DNA from: a virus
UHGV virus genome: UHGV-1999812
Strand: one strand, 5' to 3'
Length of the DNA stretch: 8,976 nt
Part shown: in pieces, positions 1 through 8,976 of the stretch
How positions within the stretch are numbered: the first letter of the stretch is position 1
Layout of the letters: each line of letters opens with the position of its first letter
Position numbers and translations under genes: made by a program
Notes under the pieces: model-generated
Databases searched by the model: none
Seen by the model: only the letters and a program-made list of their open reading frames with translations
What the model was told of the DNA's origin: nothing

Positions 1-1011
1 CTTCTTTCTGGTGGCATTGACCCAAAAGAGCACAGAGAGAAACAGCGCCTTAGTGAAGTGATGAAGAGAGAGAACACCTTCAGGCATGTAGCTACGCTCT
101 GGTTTGAACTTAAAAAAGGGCAAGGACTCGCAGAAGATACACTACGCGATATATGGCGTTCGCTGGAGCGTAATGTATTCCCGTCAGTCGGTAACAGGCC
201 AATAGCAGACCTGATAGCAAGCAATTTCATCGAAGCATTAAAACCATTAGCCGCCCAGGGGAAATTAGATACCGTCAGAAGGACAGCACAGCGAATCAAT
301 GAGGTCATGTATTACGCCGTTAATACCGGAATGATTGCCGCGAATCCGGCATCAGAGATAAGCAAGGCATTTAACGCGCCAAGCGTTAAGAACATGCCAG
401 CAATACGCCCTGAAGAACTCCCCGAATTTATGCAGAAGCTGTCAACGGCACGAGTGGAACGACAAACGCGACTGGTTATTGAGTGGCAGTTACTGACAAT
501 TTGCCGACCAGGTGAAGCAGCTGGCGCGCGCTGGTGTGAGATTGATTTTGAGGCGAAGGAATGGCGCATACCAGAGCACAGACTTAAACAACGCAGGGAA
601 CACGTAATACCACTCTCGAAGCAGGCGTTAGCCATTCTGGATGTCATGAAGCCAATAAGCGGGCATCGTGAGTTTATATTTCCACACAACAGCGACCCGC
701 AGCGCCATATGTGCACACAAACAGCAAACGCAGCAATAAAACGCATGGGTTTTGGTCGGCGGCTGGTTGCTCATGGCTTGCGCTCAATAGCAAGTACCGC
801 ACTTAACGAGCAAGGTTTTGACTCTGACGTAATCGAGGCGGCATTGTCACACATAGACAAAAACGAGGTTCGCCGCGCGTACAACCGCTCAACCTATCTC
901 GAGCAGCGACGCCCGTTAATGGCGTGGTGGGGGAATTTTGTAGAGGCTGCTGCCAGCGGGAGCGTAAGCGCCACGGGTGGCTATCGTGGGTTAAAAATGG
1001 TTAACGGTTAA
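1..1011 (+). CDS. Tyrosine recombinase / integrase, P4-IntA type (5'-partial)
   Basis: Frame 1 is open from base 1 (LLSGGIDPKEHREKQRLSEV precedes the ORF-track Met at 58) to TAA 1009-1011. The translation carries catalytic-domain signatures of tyrosine recombinases: Arg in LTICRPGEA, His-x-x-Arg in LVAHGLRSIAST, and HIDKNEVRRAYNRSTY with the C-terminal Tyr. Roughly 70-100 N-terminal residues lie upstream of the window. Confidence 0.9.
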   Translation, partial: LLSGGIDPKEHREKQRLSEVMKRENTFRHVATLWFELKKGQGLAEDTLRDIWRSLERNVFPSVGNRPIADLIASNFIEALKPLAAQGKLDTVRRTAQRINEVMYYAVNTGMIAANPASEISKAFNAPSVKNMPAIRPEELPEFMQKLSTARVERQTRLVIEWQLLTICRPGEAAGARWCEIDFEAKEWRIPEHRLKQRREHVIPLSKQALAILDVMKPISGHREFIFPHNSDPQRHMCTQTANAAIKRMGFGRRLVAHGLRSIASTALNEQGFDSDVIEAALSHIDKNEVRRAYNRSTYLEQRRPLMAWWGNFVEAAASGSVSATGGYRGLKMVNG

Positions 1012-2050: not shown

Positions 2051-2254
2051 ATGAACATTACAGAAAAGAAAATCCTTACAAAACGAGAAGTCGCAAATCT
2101 TCTTCGCCTTAGTACAACAAGCATTGACACAATGGTTAAGGCTGGTGAGTTTATTCCTGGCTTTAAGCGTGGATTACGCCGCGTTGGCTGGTTTGAGGAT
2201 GAGGTGAAATCATGGCTTGAGAAGAAAGTAGAGGAGCGTTATCAGCAGGAATAA
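2051..2254 (+). CDS. alpA: AlpA-family phage regulatory protein (excisionase-like HTH)
   Basis: 67 aa; LTKREVANLLRLSTTSIDTMVKAGEFIPGFKRGLRRVGWFEDEVKSWL matches the AlpA/Vis-like wHTH pattern (helix, GxFP-x-basic, W-x-E-x-E-V/I-x-x-W). AAGGA upstream of ATG 2051. Position downstream of an integrase is typical. Confidence 0.85.
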   Translation: MNITEKKILTKREVANLLRLSTTSIDTMVKAGEFIPGFKRGLRRVGWFEDEVKSWLEKKVEERYQQE

Positions 2255-2961: not shown

Positions 2962-3258
2962 GTCATGCTTAAAAACATGTTGATCGCCTCTTCTTTCGGG
3001 CTGTATGATGCCGGAGTCGTCCACATGGCGACCGGGTTTGACAGCCTGAATACTACAGCGGACAGCCGCTTACATTCCGATATGCGGTTTTTTTGTGTCC
3101 GTAAGCCTACCCATACCCGCATTATGGCGGGGCGTAACGGGGGAGCCTTTGCGCTCGCTGGTTCCTGTAGTGCCAGTCTGTCAACCCTGTTACGTCTCGC
3201 CACCATGTTTGACAGCGTAGTAGCGAGACTCCTTAATTTCACTACAGGAGCCTTTCAC

Positions 3259-3809: not shown

Positions 3810-4109
3810 ATGAACATGAAAAAAACTGGCTTAACTGCCAGCGGCAAGCCTCGCCCTGAATTTAAGCGCGGTGATATTTACCGCGACCAGTACGGCGGCA
3901 CGGTAATGATTAAGGGCGTGGCGGGGCGGTGCGTCACCTACCGCCGTAAAGGCTACGAATATGACTGCGTGATGCCTGTTTATCAGTTTTCCCGTGATTT
4001 TTCTCTGGTGCAGGCGGTACCGCGTAACGTGCCCACCAGCAACGTAAAGGCACTGGCAAAAATACAGAAGATGAAAAAGATGATTAACGCATTCAGGGGC
4101 AAGAAATGA
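3810..4109 (+). CDS. Hypothetical small basic protein (99 aa)
   Basis: AAGGA 6 nt before ATG 3810. Its stop TGA 4107-4109 overlaps ATG 4106 of the helicase gene (ATGA coupling). Lys/Arg-rich. No family recognised. Confidence 0.6.
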   Translation: MNMKKTGLTASGKPRPEFKRGDIYRDQYGGTVMIKGVAGRCVTYRRKGYEYDCVMPVYQFSRDFSLVQAVPRNVPTSNVKALAKIQKMKKMINAFRGKK

Positions 4110-5503
4110 AAAGCGCACCGAACTTAAAAAAACAGCCTTACGACAAAATGACCGAGGTCATTATTTTTGCGGGTAGTGATGCCTGGGCACACGCGAAGCA
4201 GTGGCAGGAGCAGGAGGGCCGACTTGCTGGCGATAATGTGCCACCTGTATGGCTTGGGGAGCAGCAACTGGCAGAACTGGCAGACACGAAAATCATTGAC
4301 GAGGGGCGCTATTGCGTCCGGCTGTACAAAGCAGGCCATATCAGACCATCAAATATTAATGCCATCGCGCAAAAACTGGCAGCGGCAGGCGTACAGGATG
4401 CGAATTATTACCCCGATGGGATGCACAGCCAGAAGCGGGAGAACTGGCGCGAATATCTGGAACGGGAGCGCGGGGAAAAGCAGGAAGAAAAAGGCCACCA
4501 GCGCAAAACAAAGCTACCGATGAGCGTTGGTTCTGCCGGATACGATACACAACTTGATTACGTGGTAAAGGGGATTATTCCGGCAGTATCGCTGTGCAGC
4601 ATATACGGGGCGAGCGGTTCCTATAAATCGTTCCTTGCGGGTTCGTGGGCGTGTCACGTTTCCACGGGCCGCCAGTGGGGAGGCCGCAGGGTGGCGCATG
4701 GCGCTGTTCTCTATGTGGTTGGTGAAGGCGGTATCGGCGTTCCGCGTCGTGTAAAAGCCTGGGAGGTTGTGCACGGTGAGCAGGTGAAAAATCTGTATCT
4801 GGTAAACCGCCCCATCTTTCCGGCTGCCCCGCTTGATGTTGATGAAATGGTTATCGCTGCCCGCCAGGTGGAACGGGAAACGGGTAAACCTGTACGCATG
4901 ATTATTCTGGATACGCTGGCGCGTTGCTTTGGTGGGAATGATGAAAATGATTCCCGTGATATGGGGGCATTTATCCGTGGGTGTGACGAGCTTAAACGGC
5001 GCACAGGGGCCACGGTGCTGGTGGTTCACCATTCCGGCAAGGATGAGACGAAAGGCGCGCGCGGTTCCAGTGCATTTCGTGCTTCGCTGGATGCTGAATA
5101 CCGGATACGCAGGGAGGACGCAGGAAGCGAAGCGCTGGTTATCTCATGTACCAAAATGAAGGACGCGGAGGAACTCAAAGAAGCCGCATATGACTTACGC
5201 GTGGTGGAGCTTTTTACCGACGCTGACGGGGAGTTAATTACGTCGCTGGTGGTGGTGGATAAGCCGCGGCATCCCGTTGAACCTGAGCGCATCGAGGAGG
5301 CAGGGAACAAGACGGAAAACCATACCGCGCTATGGGGGTGCATACGTTCACGCACACAGAACGGCGACAAGTGCACGATCCCGCTGTTACGTGATGACAT
5401 GAAACGGCTTGGGTATGACGTGAAAAACATGCGGCGATGGTTAGCAAAACTGGAGAAAGACGACGTTATCTATATCGACGGTGATGATGTAGGCCCACTG
5501 TAA
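4106..5503 (+). CDS. RepA/DnaB-like P-loop replicative helicase (RecA-fold ATPase) with N-terminal domain of unknown function
   Basis: 465 aa. Walker A-like SIYGASGSYKSFLA, Walker B-like VRMIILDTLARCFGG (hhhhD), and VLVVHHSGKDETKGARGSSAF resembling the sensor/arginine-finger region of RepA-type helicases. Followed immediately by an iteron cluster. Confidence 0.85.
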   Translation: MKSAPNLKKQPYDKMTEVIIFAGSDAWAHAKQWQEQEGRLAGDNVPPVWLGEQQLAELADTKIIDEGRYCVRLYKAGHIRPSNINAIAQKLAAAGVQDANYYPDGMHSQKRENWREYLERERGEKQEEKGHQRKTKLPMSVGSAGYDTQLDYVVKGIIPAVSLCSIYGASGSYKSFLAGSWACHVSTGRQWGGRRVAHGAVLYVVGEGGIGVPRRVKAWEVVHGEQVKNLYLVNRPIFPAAPLDVDEMVIAARQVERETGKPVRMIILDTLARCFGGNDENDSRDMGAFIRGCDELKRRTGATVLVVHHSGKDETKGARGSSAFRASLDAEYRIRREDAGSEALVISCTKMKDAEELKEAAYDLRVVELFTDADGELITSLVVVDKPRHPVEPERIEEAGNKTENHTALWGCIRSRTQNGDKCTIPLLRDDMKRLGYDVKNMRRWLAKLEKDDVIYIDGDDVGPL

Positions 5504-5703
5504 AAAAGTGAGTAGAAAAGTGAGTAATGGTGAGATTTTTACAAAATATTAACACGATTACTCACTTTCTCACCTGTATATAGGCAAAAAAGTGAGTAGT
5601 AAAAAATCACATATAAAACACGCACATAGAAAACCCGAAAATCACAGGTGAGACGAAGTGAGCGATTCCAAAAAGTGAGTAAAAAAGTGAGTAGTGGTGA
5701 GTA
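5504..5703. repeat. Iteron-like direct repeats (GTGAGTA core), putative replication origin
   Basis: At least six direct copies of (A)AAAGTGAGTA(G) at 5504-5514, 5516-5526, 5589-5600, 5670-5681, 5682-5693 and 5697-5703; degenerate GGTGAGA at 5529-5535 and 5647-5653; one inverted copy TTACTCACTTT at 5558-5568. AT-rich tracts flank it (5535-5556, 5747-5777). No long ORF with a ribosome-binding site. Confidence 0.6.
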
Positions 5704-5942
5704 AACAGCAAAAAACACAGAGCAGAGCAGCACGAAAACACAGAAAATCACTTTATTTTTATTTAAGTGTTTTGCTCATGAACGAAGGGCCACAACACGG
5801 CAGAAAGACACGCGAAAGCCCCCTGGCTGATAAGTGCATTCATGAGCACAGCAGCAACAAACTTTACCACGCTGACAGAGCGGGAGATTGCAGAAGCGGA
5901 ACAGGTAACAACCATCAACGTTAAAACCGGAGAGGTGGAATC

Positions 5943-6353
5943 ATGACAGCGCAGATAGCAGCTTACGGGCGACTGATTGACGACCCGCAGACAAAACAGA
6001 CCAGTAAGGGCACACCGATGACGCTGGCACGTATGGCGGTATCGCTGCCATGCAGTCAGGCACAGGACGGACAGGCGACGTTATGGCTATCAGTCCTGGC
6101 ATTTTGTAAGCAGGCCGACCAACTGGCAGGACATGAGAAAGGCAACGTAATCAGCGTATCCGGTGTGATGCAGGTCAGTCAGTGGACCGGACAGAACGGG
6201 GAAACGCGGCAGGGTTATCAGGTCATTGCAGACAGCGTAATCAGTGCGAAAACGGCGCGACCAGGTGGCAACAGACGCAGGACCACAGGCACACAGGGTA
6301 ATCAGCCACCAGCGGGAGGCGATGACCCTTACGGTGACAATATTCCGTTCTGA
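5943..6353 (+). CDS. ssb: Single-stranded DNA-binding protein (SSB family)
   Basis: 136 aa. The N-terminal two-thirds align by eye with E. coli SSB (WLSVLAFCKQADQLAGHEKGNVISVSGVMQVSQWTGQNGETRQGYQVIADSV vs [52 protein letters not shown]). Gly/Gln-rich linker and acidic tail DDPYGDNIPF ending in the hallmark IPF. GGAGAGGTGG RBS before ATG 5943. Confidence 0.85.
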   Translation: MTAQIAAYGRLIDDPQTKQTSKGTPMTLARMAVSLPCSQAQDGQATLWLSVLAFCKQADQLAGHEKGNVISVSGVMQVSQWTGQNGETRQGYQVIADSVISAKTARPGGNRRRTTGTQGNQPPAGGDDPYGDNIPF

Positions 6354-6363
6354 GGGGTGAACG

Positions 6364-6633
6364 ATGGTACATGACAGCATAGCGGAAGAACTGGAGGCGA
6401 AGGGCTTTTACCGGAGAGCGGCGGCGCGATGGGCTGAAGTGATGATGCTGGTGGAGACTGACAGGGAACGCGAACGGGTGGCAATGCGCAGGGCAGAGTG
6501 TTACGGGAAGACGCAGAGGCCACCGGAGCAACCGGATGATTTAGGCGGCCTGAAACGGGCGATTAAACGCACTGAAAAAGAAATGGGGATAGACGGGAGA
6601 GGCAAAAAAATCTGGCGTAGCTACCAGAAGTAA
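6364..6633 (+). CDS. PerC-family transcriptional activator
   Basis: 89 aa. N-terminal DSIAEELEAKGFYRRAAARWAEVMMLVETDRERERVAMRRAECYGK matches the conserved PerC core (E-x-K-G-x-YRRAA-x-RW-x-EV) as I recall it. ATG is 10 nt after the ssb stop. Confidence 0.75.
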   Translation: MVHDSIAEELEAKGFYRRAAARWAEVMMLVETDRERERVAMRRAECYGKTQRPPEQPDDLGGLKRAIKRTEKEMGIDGRGKKIWRSYQK

Positions 6634-6746
6634 GCACAGAGCCGGAACAGTCGGTTAGCCTTTCTGATTGTGTGCGTGTATATCGTTTTATTGCGACGTT
6701 AAATTAAACTGGTAGGACCAGATACACCAACGCAAGAGGCTACCGG

Positions 6747-7154
6747 ATGAACGAGCAAACCCATCACGTACCAAAAGACATCGAGCGGCTTAAATTCATC
6801 GACGCCATAGACAACGGAGATAAACCAGGTGATGCATGGTGTGATTCGCTTGCTGATATCGTGTCGCATTCAGTAGCGGAGCTTACCCGTAATGGCATGG
6901 AGGAGGCAGACGCTTTCAGAATCGCAAAGCGGGTTGTCGCTGCAATCGCCTTCTATGCTGGTGGGCGAAGTCTTTACCTTCCAACAGGCAGATCACTTTT
7001 CGCAGCATTGCGCGAATACGAGATTTACTACAGGTGGGATAACGGCGAAAAATTGCAGGTATTACGCAAAGAGTACGCAATATCCGAAACCCATATTTAC
7101 GACATCATACGACGACTGAGAAAGAAGCACGCCAATAAAATCACGCAAGACTAA
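6747..7154 (+). CDS. Mor-family transcriptional activator
   Basis: 135 aa. The C-terminal half FRIAKRVVAAIAFYAGGRSLYLPTGRSLFAALREYEIYYRWDNGEKLQVLRKEYAISETHIYDIIRRLRKK aligns with phage Mu Mor (EIVVAICKHLGGGQVYIPRGQALDSLIRDLRIWNDFNGRNVSELTTRYGVTFNTVYKAIRRMRR): GG-x-YIP-x-G, R-x-x-I, F-x-G-x-N, Y-x-I-RR-x-R. AGAGG RBS 7 nt before ATG. Confidence 0.8.
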   Translation: MNEQTHHVPKDIERLKFIDAIDNGDKPGDAWCDSLADIVSHSVAELTRNGMEEADAFRIAKRVVAAIAFYAGGRSLYLPTGRSLFAALREYEIYYRWDNGEKLQVLRKEYAISETHIYDIIRRLRKKHANKITQD

Positions 7155-7289
7155 CCACAGATACCAGCAGCAACCGTTATATTTGCGCCACTATCGCAAA
7201 AAATCCCCTTTCAGGGCATCACGGACGCCACAAAACACCAAAACGCATCAGAGAGCGAATCAGGCGCTTTAATGATGATTTGTTTTTTT

Positions 7290-7358
7290 GTGAAAGAAGG
7301 TGAAAGAAGGTGATTTTTGTGAAATTAAGCGAAATCACGTGAAATCAGGTGAAATAAT
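7290..7358. repeat. Seven 10-bp-phased GTGAAA direct repeats (protein-binding array or curved DNA)
   Basis: gTGAAAgaag (7290-7299), gTGAAAgaag (7300-7309), gTGAtttttg, tGAAAttaag, cGAAAtcac, gtGAAAtcag, gtGAAAtaat: the GAAA cores fall at 7292, 7302, (7312), 7321, 7331, 7341, 7351, one helical turn apart. Contains the palindrome TCACGTGA (7335-7342). Lies between the Mor-like gene and the RNA array. Confidence 0.6.
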
Positions 7359-7395
7359 GATACCCGTTCATCTGGTGCTACCAGACGAAACAGAC

Positions 7396-7424
7396 TTTAC
7401 CCGCGCATAATGCATGATTACTAT
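7396..7424 (+). promoter_or_regulatory. Putative weak sigma-70-like promoter upstream of the tRNA-like RNA array
   Basis: TTTACC (7396-7401), 17-nt spacer, TACTAT (7419-7424); predicted start near 7431, where the first RNA unit begins. Each hexamer matches consensus at only 4 of 6 positions. Confidence 0.2.
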
Positions 7425-7436
7425 TTTGCCTGGCTG

Positions 7437-7517
7437 TATGGTGTACTCTTAATCGGTAAAGCGGCATAAACCCTAACGGGCCATATGTTTATGTGGGTTC
7501 GACCCCCGCCACCAACA
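7437..7517 (+). ncRNA. tRNA-like structured RNA, unit 1 of 3
   Basis: T-arm GTGGG (7493-7497) / loop TTCGACC / CCCGC (7505-7509), with a U·G at the second pair; acceptor-like 3' strand CACCAAC (7510-7516) then unpaired A; D-arm-like TCTT / AATCGGTA / AAGC. The 5' acceptor strand is degenerate (5 of 7 pairs). No encoded CCA. Confidence 0.4.
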
Positions 7518-7540
7518 GCCAACTACCTTATCGCTTTTTT

Positions 7541-7631
7541 GCTGGTGTACTCTTAATCGGTAAAGCGGCACCCGCTTGTATAGCTTCCAGAAAGCGGGAT
7601 GTTTATGTGGGTTCGACCCCCACCACCAGCA
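7541..7631 (+). ncRNA. tRNA-like structured RNA, unit 2 of 3
   Basis: Acceptor-like helix GCTGGTG (7541-7547) with CACCAGC (7624-7630) and unpaired A7631; T-arm GTGGG (7607-7611) / TTCGACC / CCCAC (7619-7623); central 7-bp hairpin CCCGCTT (7571-7577) / AAGCGGG (7592-7598) with a 14-nt loop in the anticodon-arm position. Confidence 0.45.
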
Positions 7632-7654
7632 GCCAACAACCTCATCGCTTTTTT

Positions 7655-7736
7655 GCTGGTGTACGCTCAACGGGTAGAGTCGGTGCCAGCCTGTACAGGC
7701 TGATCATGTATGCGGGTTCGACCCCCGCCACCAGCA
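7655..7736 (+). ncRNA. tRNA-like structured RNA, unit 3 of 3
   Basis: Acceptor GCTGGTG (7655-7661) / CACCAGC (7729-7735) with unpaired A7736; D-arm GCTC (7665-7668) / AACGGGTA / GAGT (7677-7680); central hairpin CAGCC (7687-7691) / TGTACA / GGCTG (7698-7702); T-arm GCGGG (7712-7716) / TTCGACC / CCCGC (7724-7728). Non-canonical for a tRNA: 3-nt linker after the acceptor strand, 6-nt central loop, no CCA. Confidence 0.45.
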
Positions 7737-7965
7737 CGCCAAAAGCACAATTGCGCCATTTCTAAACCCACTTTAAAGCCACATAAAAACGGCTTTCGTA
7801 TCCCGTTTTATTGAGCACTCACGAAAAATGTGTACATACGCGTGTACATATACAAATTAACCCAACCCAAAGAACCGCATAATAAAAGCAATTAACGCAC
7901 ATACTAAACATTCAGATTCAATATTGAGTAACTCGTAACACTAATTCTTACTTTTCAGCCTTCAC

Positions 7966-8000
7966 AAATGCCGCCCACTCAAACAGAGCGGCATTTTTCT
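7966..8000 (+). terminator. Rho-independent terminator between island end and the dinD promoter
   Basis: Stem AAATGCCGC (7966-7974) / GCGGCATTT (7988-7996), 13-nt loop, followed by TTTTTCTT. Confidence 0.5.
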
Positions 8001-8090
8001 TCCCCGCAACTTCAATTCTGTTTTGCGTGCCTGCTCCAGATTTTGCGATGTTTTTTTGCCCAGCACACTGAGAACGTGAGATACTCACAA

Positions 8091-8106
8091 CTGTATATAA
8101 ATACAG
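8091..8106 (+). promoter_or_regulatory. LexA operator (SOS box) of the dinD promoter
   Basis: CTGTATATAAATACAG is a perfect CTGT-N8-ACAG palindrome with an AT-rich centre, about 45 nt upstream of the dinD start codon; it overlaps TATATAAAT, which could serve as the -10. Confidence 0.85.
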
Positions 8107-8151
8107 TTACAGATTTACTTTCTTTGCAATCGATATCACATGGAGTGGGCA

Positions 8152-8976
8152 ATGAACGAACATCATCAACCTTTTGAAGAAATACGGCATTATGGCACTG
8201 AAGGGCAAGAATTTTGGTCAGCTAGAGAATTGGCACCGTTACTGGATTATCGGGACTGGCGCAATTTTCAAAAGGTACTGGCCCGCGCGACTCAAGCGTG
8301 CGAAGCCAGCAATCAAGCTGCATCTGACCATTTCGTTGAAACCACCAAAATGGTTGTATTAGGTTCAGGGGCTCAACGAGAACTTGAAGATGTTCATCTC
8401 TCCCGCTATGCCTGTTACCTGGTAGTACAAAACGGCGACCCTGCGAAACCGGTCATTGCGGCAGGGCAGACTTATTTTGCTATCCAGACCCGACGGCAGG
8501 AGCTTGCTGACGATGAAGCATTTAAGCAACTTCGTGAAGACGAAAAGCGTCTGTTTCTGAGAAATGAGTTGAAAGAACATAACAAACAATTGGTTGAGGC
8601 AGCACAGCAAGCTGGGGTAGCGACAGCTACTGATTTCGCCATATTTCAGAATCATGGTTACCAGGGGCTGTATGGTGGATTAGATCAGAAAGCCATCCAC
8701 CAACTGAAGGGGCTGAAAAAGAGTCAGAAGATCCTGGATCATATGGGTTCAACAGAACTGGCGGCTAATCTCTTTCGAGCTACCCAAACAGAAGAAAAAC
8801 TCAAGCGGGATGGCGTGAATTCAAAACAGCAAGCTAATACCACACACTTTGACGTGGGTAGCAAGGTGAGGCAAACCATTCAGGAACTTGGCGGAACCAT
8901 GCCTGAGGAGTTGCCGACCCCGCAGGTCAGCATCAAGCAGTTGGAAAACAGTGTAAAAATTACAGAGAAGAAATAG
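8152..8976 (+). CDS. dinD: DNA damage-inducible protein D (DinD)
   Basis: 274-aa product beginning MNEHHQPFEEIRHYGTEGQEFWSARELAPLL, which I recognise as E. coli DinD. GGAG (8142-8145) lies 6 nt before ATG 8152; the ORF-track start at 8140 adds four residues (MEWA) and overlaps that RBS, so 8152 is preferred. LexA box upstream. Stop TAG at 8974-8976. Confidence 0.9.
   Translation: MNEHHQPFEEIRHYGTEGQEFWSARELAPLLDYRDWRNFQKVLARATQACEASNQAASDHFVETTKMVVLGSGAQRELEDVHLSRYACYLVVQNGDPAKPVIAAGQTYFAIQTRRQELADDEAFKQLREDEKRLFLRNELKEHNKQLVEAAQQAGVATATDFAIFQNHGYQGLYGGLDQKAIHQLKGLKKSQKILDHMGSTELAANLFRATQTEEKLKRDGVNSKQQANTTHFDVGSKVRQTIQELGGTMPEELPTPQVSIKQLENSVKITEKK

Follow-up and report, generated by a model that had tools for sequence, protein, structure and literature searches.

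The 8,976-nt stretch of DNA analysed here (the window; UHGV virus genome UHGV-1999812) carries what its sequence identifies as an Escherichia coli phage satellite of the Gram-negative phage-inducible chromosomal island (PICI) type. The island is about 9 kb long, is inserted site-specifically with attachment (att) sequence, has an integrase gene at one end, an alpA-type activator and its own helicase and origin, and bears all of its genes (int, alpA, two icd-like genes, DUF4222, RepA helicase, ssb, perC and mor) on the plus strand (Table 1). Its coding part closes with perC and mor, which a first-pass annotation had read as two small transcriptional activators with no late structural genes to activate. 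That description was borne out: both genes are intact and match Pfam families, no structural, lysis or tail family was found among the 10 open reading frames (ORFs) scanned against Pfam, and no ORF with a family match lies 3' of mor within the island, where only non-coding GTGAAA repeats, an array of three tRNA-like units and the right att flank follow. Our study revealed that the two regulators belong to different parts of the island, and suggests that mor is part of a swappable module through which the satellite may exploit Mu-like prophages of the Sp18 type as helper.

The Mor-like protein matched PF08765 with an E-value of 8.9e-23 and 80.8 bits (cutoff 24.9), its residues 31-131 aligning to positions 3-102 of the 107-position profile, and was assigned in PHROGs to phrog_532, 'late transcriptional activator' (E 6.9e-28); AAGAGG is the Shine-Dalgarno sequence of its gene. 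Against the PDB, Mu C (9l0x) was matched with an E-value of 6e-14 and Mu Mor (1rr7) with one of 4.5e-7, so the earlier view of the protein as a Mor-type middle activator had to be revised: by these comparisons it stands closer to C, the late activator of Mu. Among phage proteins, the C-like ones of Mu-like phages are its best homologues. It shares 31% identity with Mu C and 47% with the sole Mor/C-family protein of the Sp18-type phage, whose gene lies just upstream of the lysozyme gene, as C does in Mu. Homology to Mu C and Mor (PDB 9l0x, 9vw8, 1rr7 and 9l0y) runs over the full length and keeps the beta-strand linker and the C-terminal helix-turn-helix (HTH), although the island gene sits in a satellite rather than in a transposable phage and its candidate sites are unlike the 16-bp Mu element. 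In an alignment to residues 15-128 of Mu C, read with the published list of contact residues for that protein (bioRxiv 10.1101/2025.05.02.651988), the GGRxxYxP beta-strand (R72, Y75, P77) and the HTH residues S110, Y115 and R120 are retained, whereas Q113, Q116 and R98 are replaced by H, D and E, respectively. The gene is intact in all 14 complete genomes that carry the module, and a dN/dS of 0.11-0.23 among relatives indicates purifying selection, the N-terminal 27 residues being the most variable. As perC is likewise under purifying selection (dN/dS 0.25-0.49 among relatives), the alternative that both are inactive pseudogenes was ruled out. A contig scan with the Mor-like protein gave no wider relatives and a word-indexed protein search gave only four near-identical E. 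coli clusters, so that no distant islands were available for footprinting.

The PerC protein shows a full-length family match to PerC of enteropathogenic E. coli (EPEC) and PchA-E of enterohaemorrhagic E. coli (EHEC), with an E-value of 4.6e-37 and 126.6 bits to PF06069 (cutoff 22.6; residues 1-88 against profile positions 1-88 of 90), and belongs to phrog_994. Its gene has the Shine-Dalgarno sequence GAGGGG, and an alignment of 22 PerC sequences contained 17 invariant residues. The AlphaFold2 model consists of four helices with no recognisable DNA-binding fold; it gave no significant match to PDB folds (all E above 1), and there was no sequence match in the PDB. Unlike its EPEC and EHEC counterparts, the island gene lies in the early operon of a PICI and not on an EAF plasmid or lambdoid prophage. 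A distant search, which took in mor and the array as well, detected PerC homologues in 1306 of the 5426 complete E. coli genomes; of the matches sampled, nearly all lay in perC. Homologues with 67-69% aa identity occupy the same position after ssb in two relatives among the capsid-forming PICIs (cfPICIs; loci L054 and L055), and one of 58% identity occurs in a non-capsid relative (L056), there upstream of DUF1441 and TerS genes. In the cfPICI loci, which are EcCIEDL933-like, the order is ssb, perC, an intrinsic terminator, capsid, protease, portal, connectors, HNH, TerS and TerL, and when the DNA that follows perC was compared between the window, L054, L055 and L056, a decayed homologue of this terminator was recognised in the window. 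Since the order ssb-perC-terminator-packaging is kept in the cfPICI relatives, perC can be placed as the last gene of the early/replication operon, a PICI backbone gene directly ahead of the slot for a packaging module. In islands at the yicC site with a toprim/DUF927 replicase, perC is frameshifted (L002 11603-11874) and ssb truncated (11340-11591), while mor, the repeats and the array are intact. The treatment of both genes as one functional pair in the first-pass annotation therefore did not survive, perC being backbone and mor part of a swappable module. Pch regulators act by displacing H-NS, an anti-silencing activity, at silenced promoters such as that of LEE1 (PMC4764244), and the function of pchD and pchE of EHEC has been called elusive (PMC6265319). 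By analogy with its Pch relatives, PerC probably lifts H-NS silencing of whatever module adjoins downstream.

In the window, comparison of gene order indicates that this slot, held by the capsid/terminase operon in the cfPICI relatives, is filled by a 1.1-kb module (~6655-7744) comprising dyad 1, mor, the GTGAAA repeats, dyad 2, a candidate promoter and one to three tRNA-like units. The Mor segment was present in only 14 of 5426 complete E. coli genomes. The module is ~96% identical, non-coding part included, on three replicase backbones (RepA helicase, toprim/DUF927 and D5_N) and at several att sites, and behaves as one unit, separate from the PICI backbone. The islands occur mostly in Shiga-toxin-producing E. 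coli (STEC) and differ in how many tRNA-like units (1-3) and GTGAAAGAAG repeats (2-3) they contain. Among NZ_AP045179.1 (JNEC-KY203), NZ_CP166879.1 (strain 48) and NZ_CP074995.1 there is one genome with three copies of the Mor module, one with four Mu-like phage left (c) ends and one in which a Mu-like element with a tRNA-like gene is located on a 166-kb plasmid.

Table 1. Genes and other features of the satellite island, in positions of the window
Feature	Position	Strand	Remarks
Tyrosine integrase (Phage_integrase)	58-1011	+	cut by window start
Orphan ORF, 298 aa	1016-1912	+	directly 3' of int; GC down to 31%
AlpA-type HTH gene (Phage_AlpA/HTH_17)	2051-2254	+	
Two tandem immunity-type modules	2542-2730 and 3016-3207		each isrK-like RNA, then C4 antisense RNA, then Icd-like small ORF
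DUF4222 protein gene		+	between the isrK/C4/Icd modules and the helicase
RepA/AAA_25 helicase	4106-5503	+	
Predicted origin	5500-5700		AT-rich, with AAGTGAGTA iterons; adjoins helicase gene
Single-stranded DNA-binding protein (SSB) gene	5943-6353	+	
perC, PerC/Pch-family regulator, 89 aa	6364-6633	+	begins 10 nt after ssb stop codon
Decayed homologue of post-perC terminator	6641-6655	+	GCCGGAacagTCGGt in window vs GCCGGAGCAATCCGGCTTTTT in cfPICIs
Dyad 1, candidate operator	6708-6722		aCTGGTaggACCAGa; 25 nt upstream of mor start codon
mor, Mor/C-family transcription activator, C-type, 135 aa	6747-7154	+	
Seven GTGAAA-type repeats	7285-7362	+	10-bp phase, then TGATACC; candidate mimic of helper pac/end
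Dyad 2	7371-7385		tCTGGTgctACCAGa; centre ~-53 from putative array start; ~50 nt upstream of array
Putative weak sigma-70 promoter of array	7396-7427	+	TTTACC, 17-bp spacer, TACTAT/TATTTT; read by eye
tRNA-like unit 1	7432-7520	+	extended acceptor stem, one bulge; 90% identical to FRIK2069-type phage element
tRNA-like unit 2	7541-7631	+	7-bp hairpin with 14-nt loop replacing anticodon arm; Rfam tRNA 33.9 bits (gathering 29); cloverleaf fold
tRNA-like unit 3	7655-7736	+	Rfam tRNA 35 bits; 86% identical to NE1092/Sp18-type phage element
Right att flank	7745-7937		GTGTACAT repeats; crossover core ~7913-7937, yicC 3' end

The two dyads are candidate sites with 6-bp arms and a 3-bp spacer. The pattern they share, CTGGTNNNACCAGA (CTGGT-N3-ACCAGA), occurs at only two places in the window, flanking mor, and was not recovered in any of 200 shuffles. 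Dyad 1 is conserved in two further islands (L002 and L017) and absent from the cfPICI relatives, and dyad 2 is invariant in all island variants, as is the sequence of the putative array promoter. A consensus sigma-70 scan of 5400-8200 returned no promoter, the putative array promoter falling under the threshold. Positions 7396-7417 (TTTACCCGCGCATAATGCATGA) resemble two pieces of the early operator region of the Sp18-type phage (L006 13034-13044 and 13075-13087; an inverted TTACCCGYGC repeat and ATAATGCATCA), joined as an internal deletion would leave them. This match was too short and was not significant by blastn-short; were the likeness real, it would hint that the helper repressor could control the array promoter. 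The phased GTGAAA pattern proved as non-random as that of the dyads. The GTGAAA repeats are invariant across islands with three different replicases, whereas the iterons change with the replicase type, and the repeats were therefore ruled out as the replication origin.

The units of the array are 80-90% identical to a single 'tRNA-OTHER' annotated in ~200 E. coli genomes. In relatives, PGAP called the equivalent of unit 1 'tRNA-OTHER' and that of unit 3 'tRNA-Tyr', the loop of the latter having 6 nt and being non-canonical, and the two units resemble elements of two different phage types. ARAGORN found no tRNA in the array. The units have canonical acceptor and T arms and a non-canonical anticodon arm. 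The corresponding phage gene was located inside Mu-like prophages, in the gap between an F-like head-morphogenesis gene and a G-like virion-morphogenesis gene, antisense to the late genes. A pattern scan of viral contigs gave 35 loci, with the element placed between homologues of F and G in 33 of them, at F identities down to 46%, and it was also present in a Shewanella locus (L061) and in Pasteurella phage Pmp9; the loci compared were L003 5998-6078, L004 5997-6076, L019-L053, L061 and L064 10105-10227 (minus strand). Phage copies are preceded by a promoter, TTGCCT, 17-18 bp, TAAAAT, which overlaps the ribosome-binding site of G. In a set of 19 distinct sequences, standard pairs made up 131 of the 133 in the acceptor stem and 94 of the 95 in the T stem, with three or four pair types at each of acceptor positions 1-4. 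Because the acceptor and T stems covary, the phage and island element is judged to be a real structured RNA, and because variable hairpins with loops of 4-14 nt stand in place of its anticodon arm it is not a decoding tRNA. Duplication of an att site was rejected as the source of the units, which are full length and belong to islands inserted at yicC or mdtP, neither of which is a tRNA gene. Matches to the D-arm pattern in Acinetobacter and Bacteroidota look like chance, having no T arm and lying in two cases in apparent coding sequence. No description of the phage tRNA-like gene was found in the literature searched.

The repeats and the distribution of the module lead to the same phages. The c-end of the Sp18-type phage reads TGTAACCAGGTGAATCATTTGATACCAACGAGGGTTTTAGTGAAAGGAGGTGAAATCACC..., a terminus confirmed by 233 genomes with varied insertion sites, and the pattern GTGAA[AT]N4GTGAA[AT] was confined, in 725 kb of DNA compared, to the island repeats and nt 41-56 of this c-end. 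The Sp18-type G gene was present in 12 of the 14 complete genomes with the module and in 216 of 5412 without it (4%; Fisher p 1.9e-15, with no phylogenetic correction). All three parts of the module, the activator, the tRNA-like units and the repeats, thus point to Sp18-type Mu-like prophages as helper. The suggestion of the first-pass annotation that the activators find their targets in a helper prophage has, then, gained comparative support; that they act on helper promoters is something we infer.

P4 is a satellite without virion genes that carries, in delta, a homologue of the late activator Ogr of its helper P2 and is able to activate the late operons of that helper in trans. Both delta and Ogr are of the zinc-finger type, with no relation to Mor/C, and the island lacks psu, sid and delta, so the likeness is one of proposed logic. 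Mor and C bind a dyad beside -35-poor promoters and recruit RNA polymerase (PMC2582627; bioRxiv 10.1101/2025.05.02.651988), activating them from a dyad centred at -43.5 (PMC2582627). On the strength of the P4 analogy and this mode of action, we read the island as a PICI satellite whose 1.1-kb module is a device for exploiting Sp18-type Mu-like prophages, with the Mor-like protein as a C-type late activator comparable to delta, and we put the probability of this reading at roughly one half. In EcCICFT073, AlpA is the helper-induced activator of the early operon (PMC6092414), and in the island it would likewise drive the early/replication operon that ends in PerC. Mor-like protein made by the satellite would then bind dyad sites beside -35-poor promoters, recruit RNA polymerase, and switch on the late morphogenesis and lysis operons of the resident helper, the adjacent tRNA-like array, or both. 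The array is a plausible target, as one of the two module-specific dyads lies ~50 nt upstream of it. Finally, the replicated island would be packaged by the helper terminase through the GTGAAA block, which we liken to the pac-bearing left end of the helper. Family membership, gene order, module boundaries, the homology between module parts and the Mu-like phage, co-occurrence, purifying selection and RNA covariation are direct observations, and each regulatory step, the identity of the promoters and packaging are proposals.

A number of points weigh against this reading. Two base-contact positions of the island protein differ from those of helper C (113, H vs Q; 116, D vs T), its alpha2-alpha3 loop is WCDS and that of Mu C and the helper WPR(S/T) (WPRT in the helper), and with such altered contact residues it may not read helper C boxes. 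Copies of the island dyad were not found in helper intergenic DNA. The C box of the helper late promoters could not be defined from the sequence preceding the lysis, head, tail and mom genes and from the G-I gap of diverged phages; inspection gave conserved 11-bp-phased TTTnAAC repeats and a GGAAG-N2-CTTCC dyad, and no motif confidently transferable to the island. Dyad 2 is centred near -53, and not at -43.5, relative to the candidate -35-poor array promoter, which is itself only inferred, and the possession of a promoter by the phage copy of the RNA gene tells against the array as target. The match of the repeats to the c-end covers 21 nt with two mismatches and by blastn-short against the 39-kb phage was no better than chance 13-mers; the pac-mimic argument therefore rests on the rarer phased pattern, and pac of Mu presumably lies in the corresponding part of its left end. 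STEC lineages carry both module and phage, which the co-occurrence statistic ignores, and two of the 14 module genomes lack the phage G gene at >=85% identity (at least 85%). No capsid-size or excisionase function was identified in the island. As a separate observation, most of the Mu-like phages compared keep three 11-bp-phased TTTnAA(A/C) repeats in the G-I region (L003 5310-5485, minus strand; L021, L030, L032, L034, L037, L040 and L061), and E. coli-type phages also keep a ...TTTTCCCTG...CCGCAAA(A)CCC... block there; these are candidate late-promoter (PI-like) elements.

The differing recognition-helix residues and the lack of an island-type dyad in helper intergenic DNA would suit a self-contained module, in which the Mor-like protein binds both dyads, autoregulates mor and activates only the array, whose RNAs act on the helper. 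This would also fit with dyads that occur in the module alone, lie one on either side of its only protein gene and are the same in every variant, and with an array that has no good -35 element. However, any plausible promoter of mor would be situated upstream of dyad 1, dyad 2 misses the canonical -43.5 position (PMC2582627) by about one helical turn on the upstream side, and the phage tRNA-like gene, with a reasonable sigma-70 promoter of its own, needs no activator. We regard a self-contained module as possible, although somewhat unlikely. More doubtful is a proposal centred on the RNAs: that Mu-like phages carry an undescribed conserved tRNA-shaped RNA gene, that a PICI lineage captured helper-type variants of it into an array under a C-type activator, and that the array RNAs would be the real effectors, as mimics or antagonists of a helper RNA in head morphogenesis or packaging. 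If true, this would be an RNA-based hijack of a transposable phage by a satellite.

The module might instead dampen the phage. The Mor-like protein would form mixed oligomers or compete with helper C, the RNAs of the array would act as antisense to the F-G junction of the helper, and late expression would be damped or mistimed in a defence-like manner typical of satellites. Mor and C do act as dimers or tetramers via their N-terminal domains (bioRxiv 10.1101/2025.05.02.651988), the island protein keeps the oligomerization and beta-strand core with altered DNA-contact residues, and the units of the array correspond to two helper types and are antisense in orientation to the late mRNA of the helper. 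Such interference is nonetheless improbable, as the N-terminal 27 residues are the part of the Mor-like protein that varies most, and the hairpins of island unit 1 and of the common phage-type elements are closed by 4-nt loops (UUCG in one variant), which look structural rather than like antisense seeds.

We consider it more improbable still that the targets are mainly chromosomal, with PerC and the Mor-like protein reprogramming host genes (LEE, the enterocyte-effacement locus; curli; metabolism) and having no helper role. PerC/Pch proteins do regulate LEE1, PchE represses csgD (PMC4764244, PMC6265319), and the island is found mostly in STEC, but the position of perC is conserved in PICI backbones before packaging operons and three separate links of the Mor module to Mu-like phage favour a role in the life cycle of the element itself. 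Least credible of all is that the module is a decaying, now functionless Mu-like prophage fragment captured by recombination: its parts are homologous to pieces of Mu-like phage, the post-perC terminator is degenerate and PerC is frameshifted in some islands, yet mor is intact and constrained in 14 of 14 complete genomes, the non-coding part is as conserved as stated above, the module is found on three backbones, at several att sites and in up to three copies per genome, and its parts are rearranged and multiplied relative to the phage rather than forming a contiguous fragment.

The remainder of the island agrees with its assignment as a PICI. Gram-negative PICIs (EcCICFT073, EcCIED1a) and cfPICIs (EcCIEDL933) have the same backbone order of int, alpA, icd-like, DUF4222, primase/helicase, ori, ssb and perC. 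The island differs from the cfPICIs in lacking a capsid/terminase operon, the slot being taken by the Mor/C activator, the GTGAAA repeats and the tRNA-like array, and from EcCICFT073 in having no lambda-type cos or Rpp module. In the immunity-type modules the isrK-like RNAs scored 63.8 and 32.3 bits and the C4 antisense RNAs 77.6 and 72.3 bits, and the c4-a1b1 target model was matched under its gathering score at 2529-2581 and 3003-3052. A P4-like satellite was rejected, since the 10 ORFs scanned matched none of the psu, delta, sid and alpha primase families and only the C4 RNA/icd-like modules are shared. A Mu-like prophage remnant was also rejected, as there is no transposase or MuB, a single TGATACC is present instead of TTTGATACC-type repeats at both ends, and the element has a tyrosine integrase and att sites. 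The orphan ORF downstream of int had no Pfam or PHROG match and is placed where satellites often hold defence or accessory cargo.

Comparison of the origin regions (window 5500-5700, L002 9930-10630, L017 8763-9194) revealed that the iterons track the replicase, being AAGTGAGTA with the RepA helicase, CTGGTGGGAAC with toprim/DUF927 and CTGTCTACC with D5_N, a clear case of matched replicase-origin swaps among otherwise near-identical islands. The right junction was set by alignment with the K-12 empty site and with both junctions of the yicC-site island in NZ_CP027586 (L002); host dinD begins at 8140, beyond the right att flank. Near-identical islands occupy other sites, mostly inside mdtP next to fdhF, with another beside nfeF. 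From the integrase up to 7744 the sequence agrees with islands at mdtP or beside nfeF, and the counterpart of the right flank (GTGTACAT repeats and yicC-type core) is found in another island type, which has a different integrase. This suggests that the island of the window is a hybrid, produced by recombination between two islands within the shared Mor module, or a tandem arrangement extending outside the window.

The concept of a PICI with a Mu-like helper is not new, because PmCI172 of Pasteurella multocida has been experimentally mobilized by a Mu-family myovirus (PMC6092414). PmCI172 and PmCI86 resemble the present island, whose Mu-like helper is a candidate; PmCI172 belongs to another host genus, has a gene for a capsid-protein homologue and forms small capsids. 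In Pmp9, a Mu-like phage of Pasteurella, the F-G gap contains the tRNA-like gene, and the C-like activator of this phage is 37% identical to the island protein. In the literature searched, no E. coli satellite was tied to a transposable phage, no satellite-borne Mor/C activator was reported and no end-like repeat block was described.

In summary, the puzzle of two activators without targets is answered by placing them in a PICI and by naming a concrete candidate helper, the Sp18-type Mu-like prophages of STEC. If this reading is true, the island would be the first transposable-phage satellite of E. coli, no satellite before it would have employed a Mor/C-type activator, which parallels P4 delta in function with an unrelated fold, and PerC/Pch homologues borne by PICIs would have a testable role. 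The analysis has also brought to light a conserved tRNA-like gene of Mu-like phages. Such islands could mobilize DNA among Shiga-toxin-producing E. coli via Mu-like prophages.

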